A stretch of DNA of 64,000 nt from Thermoplasmata archaeon (GCA_023136265.1 JAGLRN010000017.1:7509-71508), one strand, 5' to 3'; counted from the first letter of the stretch, positions 8,060-44,803 are shown. The notes: generated from the letters alone by a model not told the origin. A program made the numbers and translations.

Positions 8060-10432
8060 GTGCGTATTCCTTTGTATGAGAAAATCTTCGTTACAGCAAT
8101 AGGGGCTTTGTTCCTGACAGGGAGTCTGCTTGCATGTGTGGGAAACATCGCCGATAATAGCGCGGATGATGGAGTCATCATCCAGTCGGGTAGCTATGAA
8201 GGCATTCCATCAGCCGATCCCAATGATGGAAAGTTTGTCTTGATAGCGTCAGCCGTGCATGAAACAATTGAGTCAAAGGTCGTGGCCTATATCGGCATTC
8301 CCGCGAACGAGTCGACGTTCGAGGTGGGTATATTCGACGGCGATGTTGGGCAACATTGGGATTATGTTGGTGACTTGCCAACAAGCTTCACCCTTTACAT
8401 GGACCCGTTGAAGAATGGAACGACCGCCTTATTCGTCGAGAGTTGGAGTAGCAATAGCGGTGTTCTGCCAGATGATGATTGGTACACCGAGTCTTTCTCG
8501 GTCTCTCCCGACGCTCAGGCTCCCAGCGGGAACTACTTCTACAGGCTCGTTGCTGAGTGGGAAGGCGGGACGCCTTCAAGTGGGCTGAACGACTTCAAGG
8601 TCAGGACGACCGGTCAGATTAGCCTTGCAGCTGGTCACGAGTTCGGATTTGCTGGCGGTCCTCAGGCTGGTATCGATCCGGAGTTTGGAACATCGGACAA
8701 CACCTACGACGGCGAATGGTGCTACAACTTTTACGTTCCAATAGCGAAATCCAGAGTTTTCTTCCTCGACGGTGACGCTGACCACATTTACGATACCGAC
8801 GATCCCAACACTCCCAACACTCCCCCTTATGATGAAGGGCAGAATTGGGGGAAGCCTAAGGACGACAATCCGGATCAGAAGTATCGAATCAGTCCGAACA
8901 TACACGTTGTTGTCACAGATCCAGACGGCAACACTTACTTGAACTCCAACCCCTCCGGCAACCAGGAATGGGAAATCTTCAGCATAGGAGACCTCCCCGA
9001 TGATGACTACAGTGTCAACTACTCTTTGTCTCCTGGCCTCTGGAAGTATGAGGTCAAAGGGATGGATGCTCACAACGCCAATTTCCTGGAAACGACATAC
9101 GAGGTCTTCGTATGCGGTTCAACGCCTCCACTTCCTGTGAATCCTCCACCTGAGGTAGAGCCAGACCACGACGAAGACGTGCCTGGAGGCGCAACCTACC
9201 ATTACCCGCACACAGTTACTAACAGGGGTGTCACTCAGGCCTACGACCTCACGGGTGAATCTACTCTCGGATGGTTTGCTGGGATATATGAAGATTCCAA
9301 CGCAAATGGCGTCTACGACGCAGGTGAGCCCGAGGTCGGCATAACACCAGATTTGGACACAAACGGAACCTACTACGTCCTAGTTGCCGTGGACGTTCCT
9401 GGGGGTCCGCCGGGAACCACCGATACGATCTCACTTACGGCGTCTTCTAGAATAGAATGGGCTGTTCAGGACTCAGCCGGCGATGAGATAAGGATAAATC
9501 AACCGCCTGATCCGCATGCAGGAGGTCCCTACCTTGCGGACGAGGGCGATACGGTGACCTTCGACGCTAGTGGCTCGAATGATTCAGACGGAGATCCCCT
9601 GCAATACATGTGGGACATCGATGATGATGGGGTTTTCGAGACCAACTACTCGAGCAGTCCAACATACAGCCATGTATTCGGCGATGACTACAATGGTACA
9701 GCTAGATTGAGGGTAACTGATGGCACCTATGAGGTAGAAGCGTTGTCGAATGTGACGATAGTGAACGTCGCCCCGTCTGTGCTGGGCTACCTCGACTCGC
9801 GCATCCTTACCGGAATCACCTTCCGGATCGCAGGGGAGAAGTGGCACGACGTCGAGTTCTTCCTTTACGAGGACGGAACCGAGGTCGCGTACGCACAAGT
9901 CGTACGTTATCCAGGCAGTCCGGACGATCAGGCCGTCACCTTGTCCGGTCTCAACATATCCCTATCCAGCGAGTACTCCGTCCTCGCACTATACACGCCC
10001 ATGGACGATCCCATAAACGGACAGATATGGGGCTCCACTCCCGCTTGGGTAATCCTGGACTTCGATGACGGTAACGACACGAGGATACATCACACGTTCA
10101 ACGTCATGCACAACGAGACTTGGACGTGGGAGATAGAGAGGTTGAACGAGTACTTCGGGGGTCACAACCTCACGTTCCACGCATCCGCGTATGACCCAGG
10201 AAGCGATGACCTCACCTTCACGTGGGACTGGGACGACAACAGCACAGAGACGCGAACCTACTTCAACAACGGAATTGGTCCTGATCCGTATCCGTCCTCG
10301 GATGTGAATCCAGCCTCAGTAGATGATGTCGCGACTCACTCATTCCCGGGCGGAGGCACGTATGTAGTCACTCTCACAGTGGCCGACGATGATGGTGGCT
10401 CCACTGTCATCACATTTACTGTTAGCATCTGA
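8060..10432 (+). CDS. Large secreted PKD-domain protein, paralog 1 of 3
   Basis: GTG start after gggggagggg SD. Signal peptide with LLAC (possible lipobox). PKD-like segments YMWDIDDDGVFE...VTDG and FTWDWDDNS...TVADDDGGSTV. Long blocks homologous to the proteins at 35631-37624 and 42503-44803. Confidence 0.8.
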   Translation: MRIPLYEKIFVTAIGALFLTGSLLACVGNIADNSADDGVIIQSGSYEGIPSADPNDGKFVLIASAVHETIESKVVAYIGIPANESTFEVGIFDGDVGQHWDYVGDLPTSFTLYMDPLKNGTTALFVESWSSNSGVLPDDDWYTESFSVSPDAQAPSGNYFYRLVAEWEGGTPSSGLNDFKVRTTGQISLAAGHEFGFAGGPQAGIDPEFGTSDNTYDGEWCYNFYVPIAKSRVFFLDGDADHIYDTDDPNTPNTPPYDEGQNWGKPKDDNPDQKYRISPNIHVVVTDPDGNTYLNSNPSGNQEWEIFSIGDLPDDDYSVNYSLSPGLWKYEVKGMDAHNANFLETTYEVFVCGSTPPLPVNPPPEVEPDHDEDVPGGATYHYPHTVTNRGVTQAYDLTGESTLGWFAGIYEDSNANGVYDAGEPEVGITPDLDTNGTYYVLVAVDVPGGPPGTTDTISLTASSRIEWAVQDSAGDEIRINQPPDPHAGGPYLADEGDTVTFDASGSNDSDGDPLQYMWDIDDDGVFETNYSSSPTYSHVFGDDYNGTARLRVTDGTYEVEALSNVTIVNVAPSVLGYLDSRILTGITFRIAGEKWHDVEFFLYEDGTEVAYAQVVRYPGSPDDQAVTLSGLNISLSSEYSVLALYTPMDDPINGQIWGSTPAWVILDFDDGNDTRIHHTFNVMHNETWTWEIERLNEYFGGHNLTFHASAYDPGSDDLTFTWDWDDNSTETRTYFNNGIGPDPYPSSDVNPASVDDVATHSFPGGGTYVVTLTVADDDGGSTVITFTVSI

Positions 10433-35630: not shown

Positions 35631-37624
35631 CTACTTGCGGCCAGGGACGAGTCCCCAGTAACCTATGCTGTGCCCATACTCGTTGTTCAGGTGGTCAGCT
35701 ATCTCCGTCGCAGTCGCGTACTCGCCATTATCGTACAGGTCCATCAGGTGGTCCAGCGCTTCCGAGGCCGTCATCTCAGTTCCGTCGGGGAAGGTAACAA
35801 CATCATCGGAACCTACAGTCCCGCTGCCGACGTTGTATTCCCAAGCTGTGATCTGAAGCAGGGCCAACTCCCCCTGGTTGGCGCCTCTGCCTCCCCCTCC
35901 TCCCCCCGTGGGACAGATATCTCCTTCCCCGACCGTAATCGTGGTCGTAACGGTGGCCGAGCCACCATCATCATCGGTTACAGTGAGAGTGACTACATAC
36001 GTTCCAGGTGAGCTGTAAGTATGAGTCTGAGTGTCCTGGACATTGAGCGGCGGAGTAGTTCCGCCGAAGTAGGGCTCGTACGGACTCGAATCGGGATCGT
36101 TAGGCGGCACTCTGGAGGGGTCATAGTAGTAGGTCGTGGTCGTGACGTTGCTACCGTCTCCCCAATTCCATGTGAATGTCAGGTCATCGCTGCCTGGGTC
36201 TGTTGCCGATCCAACGAAGGTCAAAGGCGCACCTACGAGTGCCCCGATGTTGATATCAACGATCCAAGGCTCCACGTGAATGAAGTGCTCGCTGTCCCTC
36301 TCGATGGACTGCTGCACGTTGAAGGTGTGTTTTATCTTGCACTGTCCACCCTCCGCGAAGTCCAGGATTATCCAGACGGGATTGGCTCCCCACAGCTGTC
36401 CGTTGATGGGCTGATCGCCCATTATCGCGTCGTTGAGGTCCTCGTACGGATCGTATGTGACCACCGCGGTATAGTTGACGGAGTCACCCGCATCCAGGCG
36501 AATCGTGATACCCTGGTCCCCAGAGCTTGGATTGAGCATCGGGTCCCCAGGCCACCTCTCTACCTCGATGTTGGCGGCTATGTCATCGTACTGGCCGGTC
36601 TCCCTATCGTAGTTCTCGTAGAGAGTGAGCTCCACATTGTGCCATTTCTCTCCAGTGACTCTCAAGAAAACCGTGACCTCGACGTACGCTCCCTCTATCG
36701 TTGCAGTCGGATCCACATTCAGTACGTCCACATAGCCGAAAGCCGTCCCCGTCAGGCCATCATCATCCGTCACGGTGAGTTTCACTTCGGTGTAGTAGTC
36801 ATCGTACCAGATGAACGTCACGATCGGGCCCGTCGCGTCGACATCGTTGTCGTAGATGCCATCGCCATCACTGTCGACAAACACGTCAAGGTCCCATTCG
36901 TAGCTGACTATCGTGCCGTCAGGGTCGGAAGAACCGGAACCGTCAAGTGTGACCAGATCGCCCTCGTGGATTGTTTCCGGGGTTATGACGATATCAGGCA
37001 CCGGCGGCTCCTCATCCTCGGGTATCATTGCCGAGGAAATGAATGTCAGGTCATGACCGTTCGGGGTCTTGTAACCCGTAACGGGGTCGAACGCGTCGAA
37101 GTGGATCTCGAAGTACTCATCTGGATCTGGGCCCAGCGTCACTGTCGTGTCGAGTCTCACGGTAGTCTTGCCAGGAAGTACCTCAGGCTCGTAGAAGTAT
37201 ATGTCCCAGATTGCTTCGTCTCCTGAGTATACATGATGCTTCCCTCCCCAGGCCTCATCAAACGGATTGAACTCCGTGTTCCCGAAGTCAGGGAGGTATG
37301 ACGCTTCACCCTCAATGTCTATGCTCACAAAGTCATCCGATGTCGTCCAGTTGTGAATCGCAATGGCGATTCTCAAATCGGTGAGATCATCATTTCCTCT
37401 GTTCTCGACAATCATCTCAAAAGTGCAGACAACATCTGGGCCAAAGTCACAATAGGTAACCCACCCACCAGCTTTCCAACCTCCGCCTTTCGCTCTTTCG
37501 CCAGGATCAGCGTTCAGCCAGATGTGGGCACCACCCCCACCGCCTGCAAGAACTGCCGGGAGTAGGGCAAGCATCATCATAGAAGCGCAGGCTAGAGCTA
37601 CGGTTCTCTTCACGTTCTCTCGCA
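35631..37624 (-). CDS. Large secreted PKD-domain protein, paralog 2 of 3, with a distinct C-terminal domain after a GGGGGG linker
   Basis: Start MRENVKRTVALACASMMMLALLPAVLA (ATG about 37624 after a ggaggaaggtg SD); the track ORF is extended to 37919. PKD segments (YEWDLD..., FTWNWGDGS...TVTDDDGGSATV). GEKWHNVELTLYEN block shared with paralog 1. Confidence 0.75.
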
Positions 37625-37650
37625 TGTCTTTCACCTTCCTCCAAACCCCA

Positions 37651-37740
37651 AGAGGCTGTGTCCGCGCCGAGTTGGAGCGTGCGTGTGGGCGAAAAGACGC
37701 CCCTCCTCGACGCCTCGTTGGACAGCCTCCCCCTTTTTTT
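37651..37740 (-). promoter_or_regulatory. GC-rich nested stem-loop element plus A8/T8 tract in the leader region of PKD paralog 2 (possible structured 5' UTR or small ncRNA)
   Basis: gaggctgtgtcc pairs with ggacagcctc, enclosing gggcg-aaaaga-cgccc and gcgccgag/ctcgacgc. It is followed by cccccttttttttg and lies between a TATA-like tatataaaag (37772) and the minus-strand ATG. Confidence 0.35.
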
Positions 37741-37928
37741 GGAAGCTTATGCACTCCACAAATGAGTCTGGGGAGTATATAAAAGCGGACTGGAAACCAT
37801 CCTGAATGATACCACATACCAGGCCATGTACCACGCGGTTGAAATCTGGATTGAGGCATAAAAGCCCAGCCTCGCTCTTCCGGCAATGCGAAAGTAATAT
37901 ATTCGGCGTAGTCAATCATTAGACAAGT

Positions 37929-40460
37929 GTGGGCATGAAATTTCGAGCACTTCTAGTCCTGACGGTCATCATCATTCTGTCCTGTTTTGCGAAGGACGTC
38001 TCGGCAGCCCTGACTGTGACCAACGTCACAGTGACCATGGATCGCTCCACTTTCTATGCCAACCAGTCAACTGCTACTGCAACAGCTGTCATAGAGTACA
38101 CGGCGGGCGCAGCGAAGGATATCGGTGATGTTAGTTTCACTTGGTTCAGACCAGATTGGAGCATAGCCGCCATCAGGATAGACACGGGAAAGGATGATGC
38201 GAACGCCACAAGCGCCATAACGGTCGACATGGGCGGCACATGGCACGTGAACGCCACTTACGTGAACCAAACAGACCAGTTCGACAACGTATCATTTGAA
38301 GTGGTGAGCGCTGGGGTCGTCGTTGTTTCTGACATGGTTCTAGTGGTGAACGCCCCCTATTTCGAATTGGGTGAAACGGTTGTCGCAACTTCGGCTCTTG
38401 ATTACGCAGGGAATGTCAGTCTCTTCGTGGCAGTCGATTTCACATGGATCGACTCCTCGAGCGCAGTTGTGAGGTCGATGAATGTTGTTCCCAATTCAAC
38501 TGGTGTCGCGATAGACACCTGGGGATCCGACAGCGTGGGCCCTTTCCTCATGTATGCGAACTACACGGGAGACGCACCGGTTTCCAGGTCGGTCAGCTTC
38601 GAGGTTTTCCCCACGAGGGTGAGGACCTGGCATAATCTCAGTGTCGTCGTGGATGAGGTCTGGGACTTGGCTGGAGAGCCGTACGGTGTCTGTGAAAACA
38701 TCACAATCGAGGCGGGATCAACGCTCACAATTGAAGCGGGCGTCACCGTGAGATTCTGCGAAGACACTCACATGACCGTGGACGGCGCGCTGGTCTCCGA
38801 TGGATCTCTGGATTCTTTCGTGAACTTCACCGCATTCGGCTTCTTCCCGCCAAAGGGTTACTGGGGTGGCATCATCGTGAACCCCTCCAGCGGTAGCTCC
38901 AGTAGCATCACCCACTCCCGGGTGAGCTTCGCATCAATCGGCATGCTGATAACCTCTGCAAGCCCAACCATCGAGAGAAGCTCGTTCGAGAATATAAGCA
39001 TCGCGGCCATCCAGTTCGATAATGCCACTGCGAATGCTGAGTTCAACTCGTTCGACGATGTCGGCAGAGGGATCTCCGCATCGGCTTCGGACATCGGGAT
39101 GAGGTTCAACACCTTCTCCAACGTCATGATGGGATTGGCCCTGATCGATTCCAACGCCACGCTACACGGAGACACCATCTTCAATTCGACGTCATTCGGA
39201 ATCCACGCATTCAACAGCTCCATTTCCGCTTCCCAGATCAACATCTCGCTCTCCGGCGGTAGCGCGATCAGACTGCAGTCCCAATCGCTTGCGATCATCG
39301 AATCATCTGTCATTGAGAACAGCTGGTACGGTGTCGATGCCTTCTCATCGACCTTCCACGTGAACGAGAGCAGCCTACTCACGAACGACAACGCTGTCAG
39401 GGCGAACGACGGGCAGGGAGACCTGGTTAACACGAGCATCCTCAACTCCGTGGACTTCGACTTCACGTTGGAAGGTGGAAGCTCAGTGATCGCACTCAAC
39501 TGCACGCTCAATGACAGCAAGGTCCAGGTGCTTCCAGCTTCGCGGCTCACCGTGAAGTACTTCTTGGATGTGCAGGTTGCAGACGAGGGTACCGGTGATC
39601 CAATCGGGAACGCCTTTGTGGAGATTCTGGATGATGGCTCCAGTATCTTCTCTTCGAGGACACCTTCGAGCGGCAGGGTGAGATGGATTCCCGTCACTGA
39701 CAGGATATTTGACGGAGCCGACACGCCAACAAAGCACAATATAACGATCAAGATCAGAAAGGATGGATATGACATCGTGGAGCCCGAGAGGACTGTCGAT
39801 ATGTACACATCCCGTCTGGAGGTCTTCCTCGCTACGGAGGCCATTCAAGACATATGGGAGGAGGTTCTCGATCCATTTCTCCTAATGATCCTCTTGATTG
39901 TCATCGCAATTGTGGTCGCCGCCGCCATCATGGTTCGAAGGAGGACAAGGGAGGAAGAGGAGATTGTCCCTGAGAAGAAGGTCCGCAAACCTACTGACTA
40001 CACCCTTAAGAAGGGCACGAGCTATCTTGTCGCTGGGGAGAAACCCGATCTCGCTTTCGGGATATTCTCGAATGCCATCAAAGGCGGAGCTAGCGGACTG
40101 TGCATCACAAGGACGTATCCCGACGAGGTCTCCGAAGAATACGACGTGGGAGATGCCCCGATTCTATGGCTCTCACGAGACTCCAGGCGGGCCAACATTA
40201 GTCCCACGAATTTGGGCGCGATAATCCTTGAGGCGCAGAGGTTCCTCAAGAAGGAGGAGGGCAAGGAGACGATTGTGATGCTCGATGGCATCGAGTACCT
40301 CATCGTCCAGAACGATTTCTCCAAGGTCATCAAGTTCGTTCAGACCTTGAAGGATACGATTTCCGTGGCCGGGTCCAAGCTCCTCATCCCGTTCAACTTG
40401 GCCGCATTGGAGGAATCGAGGCGGGCGTTGCTGACCCGCGACTTGGAGCTATTGGAGTGA
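37929..40460 (+). CDS. Cell-surface beta-helix glycoprotein with a TM segment and a C-terminal cytoplasmic DUF835-like domain
   Basis: Signal peptide MGMKFRALLVLTVIIILSCFAKDVSA. N-terminal domain paralogous to the 33678-35561 protein (TWHVNATY...NVSFEVV). Many PbH1-like repeats. TM LLMILLIVIAIVVAAAIMV. Tail with GLCITRTYP...WLSRD...LDGIEYLIVQNDF...LIPFNLAAL...LLTRDLELLE, matching my recollection of DUF835. Confidence 0.75.
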   Translation: MGMKFRALLVLTVIIILSCFAKDVSAALTVTNVTVTMDRSTFYANQSTATATAVIEYTAGAAKDIGDVSFTWFRPDWSIAAIRIDTGKDDANATSAITVDMGGTWHVNATYVNQTDQFDNVSFEVVSAGVVVVSDMVLVVNAPYFELGETVVATSALDYAGNVSLFVAVDFTWIDSSSAVVRSMNVVPNSTGVAIDTWGSDSVGPFLMYANYTGDAPVSRSVSFEVFPTRVRTWHNLSVVVDEVWDLAGEPYGVCENITIEAGSTLTIEAGVTVRFCEDTHMTVDGALVSDGSLDSFVNFTAFGFFPPKGYWGGIIVNPSSGSSSSITHSRVSFASIGMLITSASPTIERSSFENISIAAIQFDNATANAEFNSFDDVGRGISASASDIGMRFNTFSNVMMGLALIDSNATLHGDTIFNSTSFGIHAFNSSISASQINISLSGGSAIRLQSQSLAIIESSVIENSWYGVDAFSSTFHVNESSLLTNDNAVRANDGQGDLVNTSILNSVDFDFTLEGGSSVIALNCTLNDSKVQVLPASRLTVKYFLDVQVADEGTGDPIGNAFVEILDDGSSIFSSRTPSSGRVRWIPVTDRIFDGADTPTKHNITIKIRKDGYDIVEPERTVDMYTSRLEVFLATEAIQDIWEEVLDPFLLMILLIVIAIVVAAAIMVRRRTREEEEIVPEKKVRKPTDYTLKKGTSYLVAGEKPDLAFGIFSNAIKGGASGLCITRTYPDEVSEEYDVGDAPILWLSRDSRRANISPTNLGAIILEAQRFLKKEEGKETIVMLDGIEYLIVQNDFSKVIKFVQTLKDTISVAGSKLLIPFNLAALEESRRALLTRDLELLE

Positions 40461-40489
40461 AGGGTTTAATATCCGCACACAATTGACCG

Positions 40490-41215
40490 ATGGAAGGCAT
40501 GAAATCATACAGAACCTTCGTCAAAGGCCTCGATGAGGAAATCGAAGGGGGCATCCCCCAGGGTCATGTTGTTCTTATCGCGGGTCCTCCAGGGACGATG
40601 AAGTCGAGCTTGGCGTACAGCATGCTCTACCACAACGCCGCCAAGAAGAAGATTCGCGGCATGTACTTCACGCTCGAGCAGAGCAGGAAGAGTCTAGAGT
40701 TCCAGATGTCTCGTCTGAAAATGGATCCGAAGCTGGTCATGGACACTCTCAGGGTACAGGACCTGTCGAGGATAAGAAAAGGAATAGACGAGGTCAGGGG
40801 AAGACCCAGGTTCGGCAGGGAGGTCGAACGCCCCTGGTTGGAGGTTCTGAAGAAGATTCTCGAGGACATGAGAGATACTGAGAAGTACGAACTCCTCGCG
40901 ATAGACTCTCTGCCCATCCTCGAGATAATCTCAAAGCTCAAAGACAGAAGGATTCAGCTCTTCCACTTCTTCGAGTGGCTCAGGGACCTCGGGCTGACCA
41001 CGTTGATCATCACAGAGACATCACCTCAGATAGGTGAGGTCCACGACGAGGACTTCCTCGCCGACGGAGTCATTAATATACTCATGGAGAAGGTCGGAGA
41101 CATAGATGTCTACCGACGGATAAGGATCGTGAAGCTCAGGGGAGTGAACCACAACACTGGGTTCTTCACGCTCGAGTACAAGCAGGACCGGTTCCAGGTC
41201 TCTCAGGTGATCTAG
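40490..41215 (+). CDS. KaiC-like/RecA-superfamily ATPase with a non-canonical P-loop (AGPPGTMKSS)
   Basis: KaiC-domain layout: GGIPQGHVVLIAGPPGTMKS, FTLEQS, Walker B LLAIDSL. The Gly preceding the P-loop Lys is replaced by Met. Confidence 0.8.
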   Translation: MEGMKSYRTFVKGLDEEIEGGIPQGHVVLIAGPPGTMKSSLAYSMLYHNAAKKKIRGMYFTLEQSRKSLEFQMSRLKMDPKLVMDTLRVQDLSRIRKGIDEVRGRPRFGREVERPWLEVLKKILEDMRDTEKYELLAIDSLPILEIISKLKDRRIQLFHFFEWLRDLGLTTLIITETSPQIGEVHDEDFLADGVINILMEKVGDIDVYRRIRIVKLRGVNHNTGFFTLEYKQDRFQVSQVI

Positions 41216-42444
41216 GGCTCCTCGAAGAGATTCATGTATTTTATCACGGCAAGCTCTTCAGGCGTGTAGTCCTTCCTCTTTTCGAGCCCTTCTAGACCCT
41301 TTGTCGAGATCAGCTTGAACGACAGCGGGTGCCCCTCCGTCAAGCTGAAAATCCTCTCAAACTCCTTCTTCTCGATCTTCCTTTTGAGGAGCTTCTTGCA
41401 GCTCCTCTTGTCAAGCCCATCAAGGATGACCTCGCTAAGCGCCCCCCTCGCGAGCAGTTCCCTTTCCTTCGGTATGTCCCCGTTCTCGGAGATTAATACA
41501 ACCTTGGCCTCCGAGCTCCTCTCGACAACCTGGAGGACGTGATAGAATACCGTCGCCAGTTCAGGGGACATCTCCGCAAGGTCGTCGAAGAACAGCATGG
41601 CACGCGTGTCCTTGAGTCTCGTTGCGAGCGCGCCCAAAGCACTCCTCAGGTCTCTTCCCCCGCCTTCGAGATAGTCGCCCAATCCGGGCTTTCCAAGTTG
41701 CCCGAGGAAGGAAGAGAATGCGCCCAGAAGTGTCTCGGGGGTGTCCCACTGCCTGAAGGAGTACCAGAACAGGTTCAATCGGTTCTTGGACGCCGCATAG
41801 ACACGAGCCGCAAGCGATGACTTGCCCATCCCCTCAGCCCCGCGGATAGCCAGTATCTTGCCCTCAGATGCTTTCGTCCAGTCCTCGATCTCCTCCATCT
41901 CCTTCTCTCTTCCGTAGAACGGTTCCGTGAGAACCAGACCCTCCGCGAAGGACAGGAATCTCTCCTTCTTCTCGGAAGGCCTCATCTCCAGGTCCTCTAT
42001 GTTCAGTATGCCGCTGTCGTCCGTCCTACAGATGACCTCCGTTAGCGTGTGGCGAACCCCGACGTGCTTGTCGATGTCGAGGAGAGAGACCTCCTTGATG
42101 GAATCATCGTCCTTCCGTATCTTCACCCTCTTCTTCAGGACCTCCTCTTTGACTCGCTCGGCGAGACTGTATCCGTCCTCCGTGTAACCGTAGACCTTTC
42201 GCTTCCTCAGCTGTCCTCTCACCCTTCCCATGGCCTCGGTGACCAGGTCCTCCTTCTTCAGCTGAGAGATGGCCCTCGAAACGTGATTGACACGGATGCC
42301 CGTGGAGCCAGCGATGCCCTCCTGGGTGAGCCCAGAATGCACGTCCAGGAGATCCCTCGGCTGAGGAGTCTCCCGCAGATGAAGGATTATCTTCTCCTTG
42401 GCGGTCAGGTCATTCCTAGTGAGCCATTCTCCCCTTTTGACCAT
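41212..42444 (-). CDS. wHTH plus archaeal AAA ATPase (Arch_ATPase/PF01637-like) putative regulator
   Basis: N-terminal HTH (LTQEGIAGSTGIRVNHVSRAISQLKKEDLV), Walker A IRGAEGMGKSSLA, Walker B MLFFDDL. Confidence 0.7.
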   Translation of the reverse strand: MVKRGEWLTRNDLTAKEKIILHLRETPQPRDLLDVHSGLTQEGIAGSTGIRVNHVSRAISQLKKEDLVTEAMGRVRGQLRKRKVYGYTEDGYSLAERVKEEVLKKRVKIRKDDDSIKEVSLLDIDKHVGVRHTLTEVICRTDDSGILNIEDLEMRPSEKKERFLSFAEGLVLTEPFYGREKEMEEIEDWTKASEGKILAIRGAEGMGKSSLAARVYAASKNRLNLFWYSFRQWDTPETLLGAFSSFLGQLGKPGLGDYLEGGGRDLRSALGALATRLKDTRAMLFFDDLAEMSPELATVFYHVLQVVERSSEAKVVLISENGDIPKERELLARGALSEVILDGLDKRSCKKLLKRKIEKKEFERIFSLTEGHPLSFKLISTKGLEGLEKRKDYTPEELAVIKYMNLFEEP

Positions 42445-42502: not shown

Positions 42503-44803
42503 CTAGGGTGCATAGAGGTCCACGGTGACGCTGATGAGCGTCTCACCACCGTCATCGTCAGCGACCGTGATGACCAAGCTGTACGATCCCTCGGCCCAGT
42601 AGGAGTGACTGGCGCTTATCCGTACGTCGAATGGGTAGTTGCCATATGGGCTGTTTGGCGGGTCTGGTGCCAGGCCGTCATTGAAGTACGTCTCAACGTC
42701 GCTTGATCCATCGCCCCAGTCAATGGAGACGATTATGTCGTCACTTCCAGGATCGTGAATGTCAGTAGACAGAGAGACCTCGCCAATCGCGATGTTGTTC
42801 CCGTTGTTGATATCGTCAGCCACCGTCTTCACGTCCTCGAACTCGCTCTCGTTCGTCGAGGTCATGAGGATGTCTTCCGCCCACACAAGGATGTCCCCAA
42901 GGGTCGTTTCGTTCTGTCCGGGAGGCCTTGCCTGCGTCGTGAAGTTCAGCTTCCCGGACGCTACGTTCAACCACAGGGCCATCAACTGACCCTGGGCCCT
43001 GGAGTGCACCTCCTCTCCGGACGCCCATTCGAGCACAGTGCAGACATCATCCTCCGTGCTGACGTACGCGAAGAGGTCGGAGTTCGAGCTTATGAAGAGT
43101 ATCAGGTCATCGGTGATGCCCGTGTGGTTGCCGTAGGGTTCTGTGACGGTGCACTGATGGTTCCAGAAACCCTGCGTCCTGGGCTCGAGTACCGTGACAG
43201 AATAGACGAAGTTCCCTACAGTCGGATCCACGTTCTGCACCAGCAGAGGCACGTCCACGGTTTCCGAGTCCCCGTCATCGTCCACGACCGTGACCTGGAT
43301 TCCGAGGTTGAAGTCATCCCCATAGACATGGGAATCTGCGAAGTCGCCCGTTGCATCAGGTTCCTGGTTCTCTTCGGCGACGAGCGGTGCGCTGGTCTGA
43401 CCGTCGTTCCAGTCAATAAGGGCCGTGTGCGTGTCAAGCCATCCAGGGTCGTAGAAGGTCACGTGGACAGTGAACGATTGCCCCTCATCGATGGTCGACG
43501 GCTGGACGGTGATGGTGTCTATTGTCGGTGCGACATTGAAGCACCGGTAGTGCGTGGTTGTCATATCGCTCATCTCGTCATCGGAGACCTCCACGGTGAC
43601 ATCCGTCTCGTAAGGGCCGTCCCCGCAGGTCAGCTGAACAATTGGAAGAGAGGACCAGCTCGTGTCCCAAGCACCGTCGTGATCAAGGTCCCAGCGGTAC
43701 TTGAGCAGGTCGCCGTTCGGGTCGGAGCTACCGCCCGCATCGAGTAGGATGTCCGCCCCTTCATCCACCTCATACGGACCTCCGGCGTTGGCGACAGGCG
43801 GCTTGTTCACTCTGTACACCTCGATCAGCGGTTTCGCTGAATGGGAGTCATTCGACCCATCGTGGTCCACGTCCGCATATGCCCGCGGCAGGAAGTACCT
43901 TCCAGCCAACAACTTGGGAGTAACGAGCGTGTAGCTCAGCAACACCGTGTGGTATGGCGTGGGAGTCAAGTCATCATGGAAGCTAACGTCCGCCGCGGAC
44001 ACATTGACCTTCCATCTGATCGTCTGCGATCCGTCTGGATTGCCCACAACGGCATCAGGTGCCGGAACGATGGACCCCGGAACGTAGGAGTAGCCCATTG
44101 GAATAGTGTCCTCGATCACCGAGTTCACCGCGTGTGGGGGATTCGTGACACCCGGCCCGTAGATGGCCAGATTGGTGACAGTGAGCGTGATGGTGATGTT
44201 GTGGTTTATGGCATCCTCGACGTTCTTCCACAGAGGGGTCTTGCCCACAACGAGCGTAGGATGCAGGTCGAGGTAGTCCCATATCTCGTCGTTCGTGGGG
44301 TTTGGACCCTGAGCGATCTCCTGAAGTGCATAGGGCATTATCTCTCCCCCGAGGAAGATCGTAGCGCCATATTGGGTCCACTGCCTGTGTTCTGTGCACC
44401 ACCACACGATCGACCCTGGAGGCGCACCATCGCCGTACTCGTAGTCTAGGTAAGAATACGGGTCTACGACGGCACTCGTCAGAGCTCCATCCTGAGTCGT
44501 CTGAGGATTCCAAGATTCCAGGGGATGAGGACTCAAGAGCATCATCATCTCGTTTATGTTGACCTTGATGCTTCCGGAATTGGTCACCCTGAACACCGAC
44601 GGATAGCCGTACTGATTGACCTCCGACGTGATTTGGGCCCATCCTTTGGCGTAAGCTTCCCAGATCTTGATCATGTCAGGCATAGGCTGAGGTCCCAATG
44701 GGTCCTCCAGTCTCGCACTCGGTTCGGTTGCGGGTTCCGACACTGCGATCGCGGACGAAAGTAGCAGTATCGCGAACACCGACATCGTGGCGATTTTCTT
44801 CAC
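42503..44803 (-). CDS. Large secreted PKD-domain protein, paralog 3 of 3
   Basis: Signal peptide MKKIATMSVFAILLLSSAIAVSEP. PKD segments (KYRWDLDHDGAWD..., IDWGDGSSDVETYFNDG...ITVADDDGGETL). C-terminal block homologous to paralog 1. Confidence 0.8.
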   Translation of the reverse strand: MKKIATMSVFAILLLSSAIAVSEPATEPSARLEDPLGPQPMPDMIKIWEAYAKGWAQITSEVNQYGYPSVFRVTNSGSIKVNINEMMMLLSPHPLESWNPQTTQDGALTSAVVDPYSYLDYEYGDGAPPGSIVWWCTEHRQWTQYGATIFLGGEIMPYALQEIAQGPNPTNDEIWDYLDLHPTLVVGKTPLWKNVEDAINHNITITLTVTNLAIYGPGVTNPPHAVNSVIEDTIPMGYSYVPGSIVPAPDAVVGNPDGSQTIRWKVNVSAADVSFHDDLTPTPYHTVLLSYTLVTPKLLAGRYFLPRAYADVDHDGSNDSHSAKPLIEVYRVNKPPVANAGGPYEVDEGADILLDAGGSSDPNGDLLKYRWDLDHDGAWDTSWSSLPIVQLTCGDGPYETDVTVEVSDDEMSDMTTTHYRCFNVAPTIDTITVQPSTIDEGQSFTVHVTFYDPGWLDTHTALIDWNDGQTSAPLVAEENQEPDATGDFADSHVYGDDFNLGIQVTVVDDDGDSETVDVPLLVQNVDPTVGNFVYSVTVLEPRTQGFWNHQCTVTEPYGNHTGITDDLILFISSNSDLFAYVSTEDDVCTVLEWASGEEVHSRAQGQLMALWLNVASGKLNFTTQARPPGQNETTLGDILVWAEDILMTSTNESEFEDVKTVADDINNGNNIAIGEVSLSTDIHDPGSDDIIVSIDWGDGSSDVETYFNDGLAPDPPNSPYGNYPFDVRISASHSYWAEGSYSLVITVADDDGGETLISVTVDLYAP

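Follow-up and report, generated by a model that had tools for sequence, protein, structure and literature searches.

In a 64,000-nt window from an uncultured Thermoplasmata archaeon (GCA_023136265.1, JAGLRN010000017.1:7509-71508), to which all open reading frame (ORF) coordinates below refer, we analysed a gene for a large surface protein ending in a DUF835 domain, together with the KaiC-like ATPase gene that follows it. The surface protein, called the receptor here for brevity, is predicted from its sequence to be a type-I membrane protein with an N-glycosylated ectodomain. The DUF835–KaiC gene pair is co-conserved well beyond background synteny, and the locus adds a new architecture to the already predicted archaeal signalling by KaiC and inactivated KaiC-like (iKaiC) proteins. 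We put at about even the chances that the receptor serves as the membrane-bound, receptor-type input to an archaeal cassette for KaiC-type signalling; outside-in signalling through it is plausible and reasonable to infer.

A predicted surface glycoprotein followed by a KaiC-like ATPase

The two genes and their parts are as follows.

37935..40460, + strand: predicted receptor-like type-I membrane glycoprotein, 841 amino acids (aa) from ATG 37935 (843 aa from GTG 37929)
37929..38006, + strand: signal peptide, aa 1–26 (843-aa numbering), from hydrophobicity and a DVSA motif followed by A; modelled helix 4–19
38016..38609, + strand: two tandem immunoglobulin/macroglobulin (Ig/MG)-like beta-sandwich domains, aa 30–126 and 132–227; AlphaFold2 predicted local distance difference test (pLDDT) about 80–88
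38646..39533, + strand: right-handed parallel beta-helix, aa about 240–535, confident core 360–535
39543..39839, + strand: membrane-proximal beta-sandwich, aa 539–637; AlphaFold2 pLDDT about 80–85; aligns with the neighbouring anchor paralogue
39873..39944, + strand: single transmembrane (TM) helix, aa 649–672, hydrophobic core 650–669; Kyte-Doolittle peak 3.45; modelled helix 649–672
40014..40457, + strand: cytoplasmic DUF835 domain, a predicted KaiC/RecA-fold pseudo-ATPase without Walker A
40461..40498, + strand: receptor–KaiC spacer, the KaiC start lying 29–38 nt downstream of the receptor; TATA-like TTTAATAT at 40465–40472
40490..41215, + strand: single-domain KaiC-family ATPase, 241 aa, probably 238 aa from the conserved ATG 40499

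A first-pass annotation had placed an 843-aa receptor at 37929–40460. The ORF stands, and its start moves to ATG 37935, which is the conserved one: M3 is invariant among orthologues, and NCBI MCJ2669965.1 is the identical protein of 841 aa. Topology (signal peptide, TM helix, inside and outside) was derived by hydropathy and charge analysis, which, with sequon counts, bore out the proposed signal peptide, sequon-rich ectodomain, one TM helix and cytoplasmic tail. The N-terminus is a hydrophobic signal sequence, MGMKFRALLVLTVIIILSCFAKDVSA, followed by A, and RRRTREEEE comes directly after the TM segment, consistent with the positive-inside rule. The ectodomain holds 23 N-X-S/T sequons, compared with 7.4 ± 2.3 in shuffles, and the tail one; most are retained in 10–13 of 13 orthologues. 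Since the ectodomain is conserved (72–77% mean identity) along with its sequons, it is not a hypervariable antigen.

The full-length AlphaFold2 model is moderate overall (pLDDT 67), with well-resolved individual domains. Foldseek matched the N-terminal pair to tandem Ig, MG and fibronectin type III domains (PECAM-1, complement C3 MG, intimin; E 1e-7 to 1e-5). Both Ig-like copies align with aa 26–125 of the anchor paralogue, an internal duplication of the first Ig-like domain. The right-handed beta-helix that had been suggested is confirmed by Pfam Beta_helix (PF13229, PbH1/CASH type; aa 360–503, 37 bits versus a gathering threshold (GA) of 25.9) and by a regular strand ladder at aa 360–535 in the model (pLDDT 75–93); aa 278–359 are of low confidence, and a NosD match is sub-threshold.

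The receptor tail as a predicted pseudo-ATPase

The hidden Markov model search agreed with the earlier assignment of the tail to DUF835: PF05763 matched aa 708–838 (E 1.7e-29, 102.8 bits versus GA 33.1), over profile positions 7–135 of 136. In fold comparison the tail came closest to PH0284, an archaeal single-domain KaiC-like RecA ATPase (15.2, 146 of 160 residues aligned), then to SSO2452 (13.6), FlaH/ArlH (13.2–13.3) and KaiC (12.6–12.9); Twinkle and Rad51 paralogues gave lower values. The loop after strand 1 reads AGEKPDLAF, GK[ST] was found nowhere in the DUF835 domain across the 18 relatives examined, and a Walker-B-like LDG (D786) is kept. A KaiC/RecA fold that has lost its P-loop makes the DUF835 tail a probable pseudo-ATPase. 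DUF835 had been described as a family that partners KaiC; the pair is indeed co-conserved, and the comparison with the modelled fold adds that the domain itself has a KaiC/RecA fold without a P-loop, so that the tail appears to be a pseudo-ATPase paralogue of the neighbouring ATPase, more than a partner family.

At the sequence level a homology between tail and KaiC was rejected as not significant, so that the relationship is here one of fold: when hhalign compared the tail alignment (A1) with that of the partner (A4), both alignments being shallow, the probability was 0.6% and E 0.1, and phmmer of the tail against the PDB returned nothing below E 0.6. DUF835 is labelled 'iKaiC' in Table 2 of Galperin et al. 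2018 (PMC5847659), where REC–DUF835 response regulators are also reported. Tandem DUF835 domains occur in 23 of 175 relatives, reminiscent of double-domain KaiC.

The gene downstream had been read as a single-domain KaiC-like ATPase on the same strand, and this proved correct: Pfam KaiC (PF06745) matched aa 8–231 as a single domain at 120.8 bits versus 26.6. By phmmer against the PDB the full KaiC CI domain was aligned (E 3.4e-21), and the protein also aligns with PH0186/PH0284. Its Walker B Asp (LLAIDS) and VKLRG (K-x-R-G, the arginine finger region) align with the KaiC motifs. The P-loop, GPPGTMKS at 40583–40606, has Met at the canonical Gly position with Lys and Ser retained, and does not conform to the canonical GxxxxGK[ST]; the catalytic site TLEQ has one Glu, EQ versus EE in KaiC CI. 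Both states are invariant in all cassette-linked KaiC-like orthologues. All NCBIfam equivalog cutoffs were missed (clock KaiC NF006799, 89.1 versus 408 bits; TIGR02655, 44.4 versus 546; ArlH NF052589, 45.4 versus 215), and by these scores we class the protein as neither clock KaiC nor ArlH.

GxPGTMKS also defines a large KaiC subfamily, usually with TLEQ for EE (L001–L018, L023, L054, L091–L169). Linkage to DUF835 occurs in its GPPGTMKS branch only, and some distant members lie in clusters of two to three KaiC paralogues (L125, L139).

Conservation of the DUF835–KaiC–regulator cassette

The orthologues (47–93% identity) are all from Thermoplasmata metagenome-assembled genomes. The census of DUF835 loci was made with the close tail alignment A1 and is therefore biased to relatives of this tail. 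A second, independent sample, drawn by KaiC, comprised 79 metagenome loci; its P-loops are biased, because one search pattern contained GTMK. The orthologues retain the whole neighbourhood, yet the flanking housekeeping genes (ABC transporter, Rpr2, M24 peptidase, TBP) keep their order just as well, even at 47% identity; we therefore did not accept shared gene order as evidence of coupling, since on its own it proves little.

The pair persists in other surroundings. In L010 the block of anchor, PKD-A, beta-helix–DUF835, KaiC and helix-turn-helix (HTH)-ATPase genes is kept between entirely different outer flanks. In L007, L008, L017 and L018 the DUF835, KaiC and HTH-ATPase genes are kept among other neighbours, with a short DUF835 protein of about 190–240 aa that has no ectodomain and whose stop codon abuts the KaiC start (TAAATG). 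From the KaiC side, 20 metagenome loci carry a KaiC-like protein of at least 51% identity, and the sequence upstream is usable in 19 of them; all 19 have a DUF835 gene there on the same strand, at a distance of −9 to +194 bp. The regulator overlaps convergently in 13 loci of this set. The DUF835 proteins in these loci are long (802–996 aa) or short, and in L108 the protein combines beta-helix, PKD and DUF835. The 59 more distant GxPGTMKS relatives are without DUF835 and regulator neighbours.

The ectodomain and the KaiC link are separable, since each occurs without the other. Cassettes with an ectodomain-less DUF835 protein, and without anchor or PKD-A, are found in L007, L008, L093, L100 and L103. 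A sister clade of beta-helix–DUF835 proteins (L009, L019–L022; 851–864 aa) has no KaiC or regulator gene within the available sequence, and retains PKD-A, the TACCA element described below and, where sequence reaches, the anchor. The co-conservation in relatives, whose absence the first-pass annotation would have taken as a refutation, was thus found in L010, in the short-form loci and in all 19 KaiC-sampled loci, and was missing from this sister clade. The locus is two separable modules joined at the DUF835 gene: one comprises the anchor and PKD-A, divergent from beta-helix–DUF835, the other DUF835 and then KaiC, convergent with an HTH-STAND regulator and PKD-B.

The KaiC-less clade has a downstream gene of its own on the same strand (L021 6505–7179 (+), L020 6449–7177, L022 2729–3403, L009 3401–3649). 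It encodes 224–242 aa with a kinase-like match to TiaS_TCKD that is sub-threshold (24.9 bits versus 27), and the product might be an alternative partner of the DUF835 tail.

The short DUF835 proteins (P0019–P0030; L007 6001–6717, L017, L018, L093, L100, L103) start with MRVPP and carry a brief hydrophobic stretch and a basic cluster (for example, IFGILKLMIFGKRKK) that align with the end of the receptor TM helix and its RRR stop-transfer signal. Judged by this alignment, the short form looks like a remnant of ectodomain deletion rather than an ancestral soluble form. A short DUF835 gene followed by a KaiC-like gene with a canonical P-loop also occurs in L041 (Candidatus Hodarchaeum, Asgard) and in L049 and L068 (Altiarchaeota), so that the gene pair is older and broader than this cassette; the KaiC-like genes in these three loci have normal GxGK[ST].

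DUF835 as a module on varied N-terminal domains

Searching with the tail returned 2,527 representative clusters at E ≤ 1e-3, of 150–2,329 aa, with DUF835 nearly always C-terminal. The proposed census of DUF835 proteins bore fruit: beta-helix ectodomains recur in several Thermoplasmata clades, in at least seven clusters at 50% identity, and among the best 150 of the 2,527 clusters Beta_helix and DUF835 are joined in P0034, P0035, P0041, P0047, P0048 and P0080. The same plan of signal peptide, ectodomain, TM helix and DUF835 is found in those best 150 with MAM-like domains, with 14 NHL repeats, with PKD, and with PQQ and PEGA. Other architectures join HisKA_7TM or a Zn-ribbon to two DUF835 domains. 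The beta-helix fusion is accordingly one among several ectodomain variants of a general module.

To the first-pass annotation this fusion had looked undescribed. No experimental or descriptive paper on the architecture or cassette was found in a full-text search, which had Makarova et al. 2017 outside its reach and for which PMC5847659 was the only match to DUF835 or PF05763. The fusion itself is recurrent, and public databases already carry the proteins under automatic annotations ('DUF835 domain-containing protein', 'AAA family ATPase / circadian clock protein KaiC', 'ATP-binding protein').

DUF835 also ends a set of proteins related to isoleucyl-tRNA synthetase (IleRS) that are widespread in Thermoplasmata. 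They are about 1,300–1,800 aa long and consist of tRNA-synt_1, Anticodon_1 and DUF5915, HhH repeats and a C-terminal DUF835 (for example, L027, L029–L031, L033–L037, L044, L045; proteins P0099, P0134). P0099 has HVGT at the HIGH motif and, searched by pattern, no KMSKS-like motif; these IleRS-like proteins may therefore be degenerate synthetase paralogues.

Regulator and surface-protein genes around the pair

Four further genes flank the receptor and ATPase genes.

41212..42444, − strand: predicted regulator with a probable winged helix-turn-helix (wHTH) and a STAND-type NTPase (NOD), 410 aa, convergent with the KaiC-like gene
42503..44803, − strand: secreted protein PKD-B, upstream of the regulator on the same strand with a 58-bp gap; Pfam PKD_4 50.6 bits
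35631..37625, − strand: secreted or surface protein PKD-A, about 664 aa from ATG 37625; Pfam PKD_4 70.7 and PKD 51.2 bits
33678..35561, − strand: TM-anchored surface paralogue without DUF835 (the anchor), 627 aa; Pfam NosD 29.6 bits, TSP3_bac

These Pfam matches support the earlier description of the flanks as a second beta-helix anchor protein, two PKD proteins and an HTH-AAA protein. The regulator had been called divergent, which was wrong. It is convergent with the KaiC-like gene, and the two stop codons share the palindrome CTAG at 41212–41215; a convergent overlap of 4–8 bp is kept in most cassette loci. The 3′ transcript ends would therefore overlap, with no room for a terminator. Pfam assigns the regulator to ATPase_2 (PF01637, 37.9 bits versus 33.2) and AAA_16 (PF13191, 33.9 versus 32.6), and phmmer matches its NOD, aa 173–381, to the STAND protein PH0952 (6mfv; E 6.5e-11). 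The N-terminal wHTH is weak (HTH_Crp_2, 25.5 bits, slightly under the cutoff of 27), and the 410 aa contain no sensor repeats such as the TPR arm of PH0952. PKD-B stays beside the regulator in L001–L005, L016, L017 and L018; in L018 it is 1,100 aa long and its gene overlaps the regulator gene by 4 bp.

PKD-A is divergent from the receptor gene and is retained even in the KaiC-less clade. Its mechanical ORF, 35631–37919, is about 98 codons over-long, the extension crossing the divergent promoter. The start is most likely ATG 37625, which has GGAGG/GGTGA upstream and the signal-peptide-like sequence MRENVKRTVALACASMMMLALLPAVLA directly after it; orthologues are 583–707 aa, those compared for the start being 649–707 aa. 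The anchor lies next to PKD-A in L001–L005, L010, L014 and L020. It runs from signal peptide through Ig-like domain, beta-helix, beta-sandwich and TSP3-type Asp-rich (Ca-binding-like) repeats to a C-terminal TM helix; these repeats and this helix take the place of the receptor's TM helix and DUF835. The anchor is a paralogue of the receptor ectodomain: BLASTP aligns 515 aa at 29% identity (E 1e-35). Some 27 kb upstream of this locus, at 8060–10432 (+), lies the gene for a third PKD-A-like protein, which phmmer matches to PKD-A at E 5e-48.

Pfam found no HisKA, HATPase_c or REC domain and no sigma or anti-sigma domain in the six proteins of the block, so a two-component system has no support. 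Anti-phage defence was set aside: PADLOC gives only two marginal mad8 P-loop matches (17–19 bits).

Conserved elements in the intergenic regions

Four elements were delineated in the roughly 300 bp between PKD-A and the receptor; the last three are conserved in long-form, short-form and sister-clade loci alike.

37626..37934, unstranded: divergent promoter region, with conserved blocks GCGCCCCTCCTCGACGCC / GGACAGCCTCCCCC (about 37695–37735)
37776–37784: conserved block TATATAAAA
37810–37821, + strand: direct repeats TACCAnnTACCA, with a third TACCA at 37829–37833, 8–9 nt on
37888–37904: GCGAAAGTAATATATTC, resembling a transcription factor B recognition element and TATA box, about 30 nt upstream of the receptor start codon

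Of the first 90 related loci, 75 lack the repeat TACCAnnTACCA; the other 15 each have a single copy, which precedes the DUF835 gene in the same orientation (for example, L001 4985–4996, L003 7877–7888, L010 5913–5924, L017 4208–4219, L020 3785–3796). These loci span three clades, KaiC-linked, KaiC-less and ectodomain-less. Among the KaiC-sampled loci the strict TACCAnnTACC is present in L093 only; more distant loci have altered spacing, and variants with 3-nt spacing lie at about −90 in L096 and L108. Because the count within the window is not significant (1 match versus 0.84 expected), the motif draws all its weight from conservation across loci. The upstream blocks matched no Rfam family, and neither strand showed a conserved RNA fold; this speaks against a structured RNA and leaves a DNA operator as the simplest reading; the TACCA repeat is a candidate operator.

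In alignment A5 (L007, L017, L094, L100, L096, L098), GCGCCC(C/T)TCCTCGACGCC and AGGCA(A/G)CCTC.CCCC (about 37695–37735) are kept upstream of DUF835, even where PmbA/TldD replaces PKD-A upstream.

Proposed mechanism and alternatives

Beyond the first-pass annotation, the analysis adds the predicted pseudo-ATPase tail, the fixed GTMKS P-loop, the overlapping STAND regulator, the ectodomain-less and KaiC-less variants and the conserved candidate operator. The scheme that we infer, for physical contact, signalling direction, ligand and regulator targets, builds on the domain identities, predicted topology, fold, motif states, two-way co-conservation and conserved cis-elements described above. The state of the ectodomain, set by binding of a glycan or other ligand or of the co-encoded anchor paralogue and PKD proteins, would alter the clustering of the cytoplasmic DUF835 domains. 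The DUF835 assembly would then dock or co-assemble with the KaiC-like ATPase as a split two-ring KaiC and alter its nucleotide or autophosphorylation state and its oligomeric state, as in ArlH. The ATPase would in turn provide the sensor input that a STAND regulator without a sensor arm is missing, and the regulator's wHTH would act on promoters, with the TACCA element between the receptor and the PKD-A and anchor genes as a candidate target. The sensor-type N-termini found on C-terminal DUF835 domains elsewhere (HisKA_7TM, NHL, PKD, MAM, PQQ/PEGA) count in favour of such signalling. The full version of the scheme, a 'split KaiC' that is a complete and self-contained transmembrane pathway, with a DUF835 ring at the membrane on a GPPGTMKS ring that passes the signal to the STAND regulator and the TACCA operator and so autoregulates the surface glycoproteins (receptor, anchor, PKD), is a tentative proposal on which we would bet somewhat less than one chance in three.

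Several observations weigh against a receptor that signals through the adjacent ATPase. The beta-helix–DUF835 sister clade has no KaiC or regulator gene nearby. The conserved residues of the KaiC-linked tails are nearly all common to that KaiC-less clade; only A709 and F803 differ, so there is no clear KaiC-interface signature, and the candidate specificity-determining residues were dropped as not discriminating. The profile comparison of tail and ATPase by hhalign, not significant, counts on the same side. A Rosetta-stone test found no fusion of DUF835 with PF06745 among nine non-C-terminal architectures. IleRS-like proteins with HhH and DUF835 account for 45 of the 80 sampled genome loci and have no KaiC nearby, so a neighbouring KaiC is no necessity for signalling by DUF835. 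In the ATPase itself, nucleotide binding may suffer from the Met that replaces the P-loop Gly. Finally, the TATA-like TTTAATAT in the gap between the two genes is conserved in the window locus, L002, L003, L005 and L014, about 30 nt before ATG 40499. It suggests that the KaiC-like gene possibly has an internal promoter of its own, and co-transcription cannot be assumed.

The same KaiC-less clade (L009, L019–L022), the IleRS-like–HhH–DUF835 fusions, the low count of nearby KaiC genes (within 2 kb in only 13 of 80 DUF835-sampled loci) and the distant GxPGTMKS relatives without DUF835 neighbours would suit a merely historical adjacency. DUF835 would then be a general oligomerization or scaffold domain, the receptor an independent protein, for example an adhesin or glycocalyx component clustered by its tail, and the KaiC-like/HTH-STAND pair a regulator of something else. 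We think this quite unlikely: within the GPPGTMKS clade the co-occurrence seen from the KaiC side is 19 of 19, with long and short DUF835 proteins and differing outer flanks, the genes abut or nearly so in short-form loci (TAAATG), and the special fixed P-loop is restricted to the linked ATPases.

The surface proteins might instead be the point of the locus, with the anchor, the two PKD proteins and the receptor forming a complex on whose assembly, turnover or anchoring the tail and ATPase act from inside, much as ArlH works with ArlI in the archaellum motor, and with no relay to transcription. The paralogy of the receptor ectodomain with the adjacent anchor and the tandem Ig/MG-like domains, which resemble adhesion and assembly modules, favour this, as does the pairing of anchor and PKD-A with the receptor gene, which is conserved at least as well as the KaiC link and is kept in the KaiC-less clade. 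The cassette nonetheless exists without ectodomain, anchor or PKD-A (in the five loci named above), the predicted DNA-binding STAND regulator is integral and overlapping, which argues for transcriptional output, and the block has no ArlI/PilB-type secretion or assembly ATPase; on balance we hold such a role to be unlikely. An ectodomain with a mainly enzymatic role, a beta-helix of CASH/pectate-lyase type that processes glycans of the surface or the environment while the cytoplasmic module tunes its activity or reports on substrate, would account for the Beta_helix and NosD matches, for a weak Pect-lyase_RHGA_epim match in the paralogue and relatives, and for the many invariant polar residues of the helix (for example, D415, H426, D494). 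No specific glycoside hydrolase or lyase family rose above the Pfam threshold for the ectodomain and no NCBIfam matched, the fold search with the whole receptor model returned Ig/MG-type matches only, and the first helix turns are poorly modelled; we give this reading little credence, and it is in any case compatible with signalling.

A receptor-type input to a KaiC cassette would matter for several reasons. The idea that KaiC-like ATPases are native archaeal signalling hubs rests almost wholly on comparative genomics, and few concrete, reconstitutable pathways from input to output have been proposed. Here the parts are separable (extracellular sensing domain, pseudo-ATPase transmitter, ATPase with a diagnostic P-loop, DNA-binding STAND output and candidate operator), and the natural ectodomain-less and KaiC-less variants are built-in controls. 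Given their small size, the cytoplasmic parts should be amenable to expression, which makes the scheme testable in vitro even though these Thermoplasmata are uncultured. If true, it would show RecA/KaiC-fold pseudo-enzymes serving as receptor tails and STAND regulators taking input from a partner ATPase, and offer a plausible route by which archaea sense their own surface.

Comparison with known systems

The nearest relatives of this arrangement are the archaeal KaiC-like signalling networks with iKaiC domains, DUF835 included, proposed by Makarova, Galperin & Koonin 2017 (mBio 8:e01959-17) as cited in PMC5847659. In common with them, the locus has a KaiC-family ATPase beside a DUF835 protein and DUF835 C-terminal to sensor-type domains, and in both the signalling is predicted only. 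It differs in the extracellular Ig-like/beta-helix domain of roughly 650 aa with a single TM helix, in the fixed GPPGTMKS P-loop and in an overlapping third member, the wHTH-STAND protein without a sensor.

ArlH, according to PMC8978795 and the reference list of PMC10983859, is a KaiC-like protein that can bind but does not hydrolyse ATP, and its signalling works through oligomerization that depends on autophosphorylation; PMC10983859 is also the source given for CirA alongside this precedent. The locus ATPase, by contrast, scores 45 versus 215 bits at the ArlH (FlaH) equivalog, there are no ArlI or ArlJ genes here, and the partner onto which we propose it docks is no secretion-type ATPase but a surface protein's pseudo-ATPase tail. 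The ATPase can be aligned with cyanobacterial KaiC along the entire CI domain (E 3.4e-21), and pairing of DUF835 with a KaiC-like protein would mimic two stacked RecA-like rings, all the more as proteins with two DUF835 domains exist; unlike KaiC, the locus ATPase is single-domain, has no KaiA or KaiB, and has EQ for EE and Met for the P-loop Gly.

The regulator shares a homologous NOD/ATPase_2 with PH0952 (6mfv) and MalT-type STAND regulators and, as in MalT, a predicted DNA-binding HTH effector. It differs from them in its 410 aa without a TPR or WD40 arm, in the N-terminal position of the HTH and in an inducer input that we propose to come from a partner. The overall logic of an extracytoplasmic domain, one TM helix, a cytoplasmic transmitter and a DNA-binding output is that of ToxR-like receptors, anti-sigma/extracytoplasmic function (ECF) systems and two-component systems, whereas the transmitter here would be a RecA-fold pseudo-ATPase and the relay a KaiC-like ATPase.

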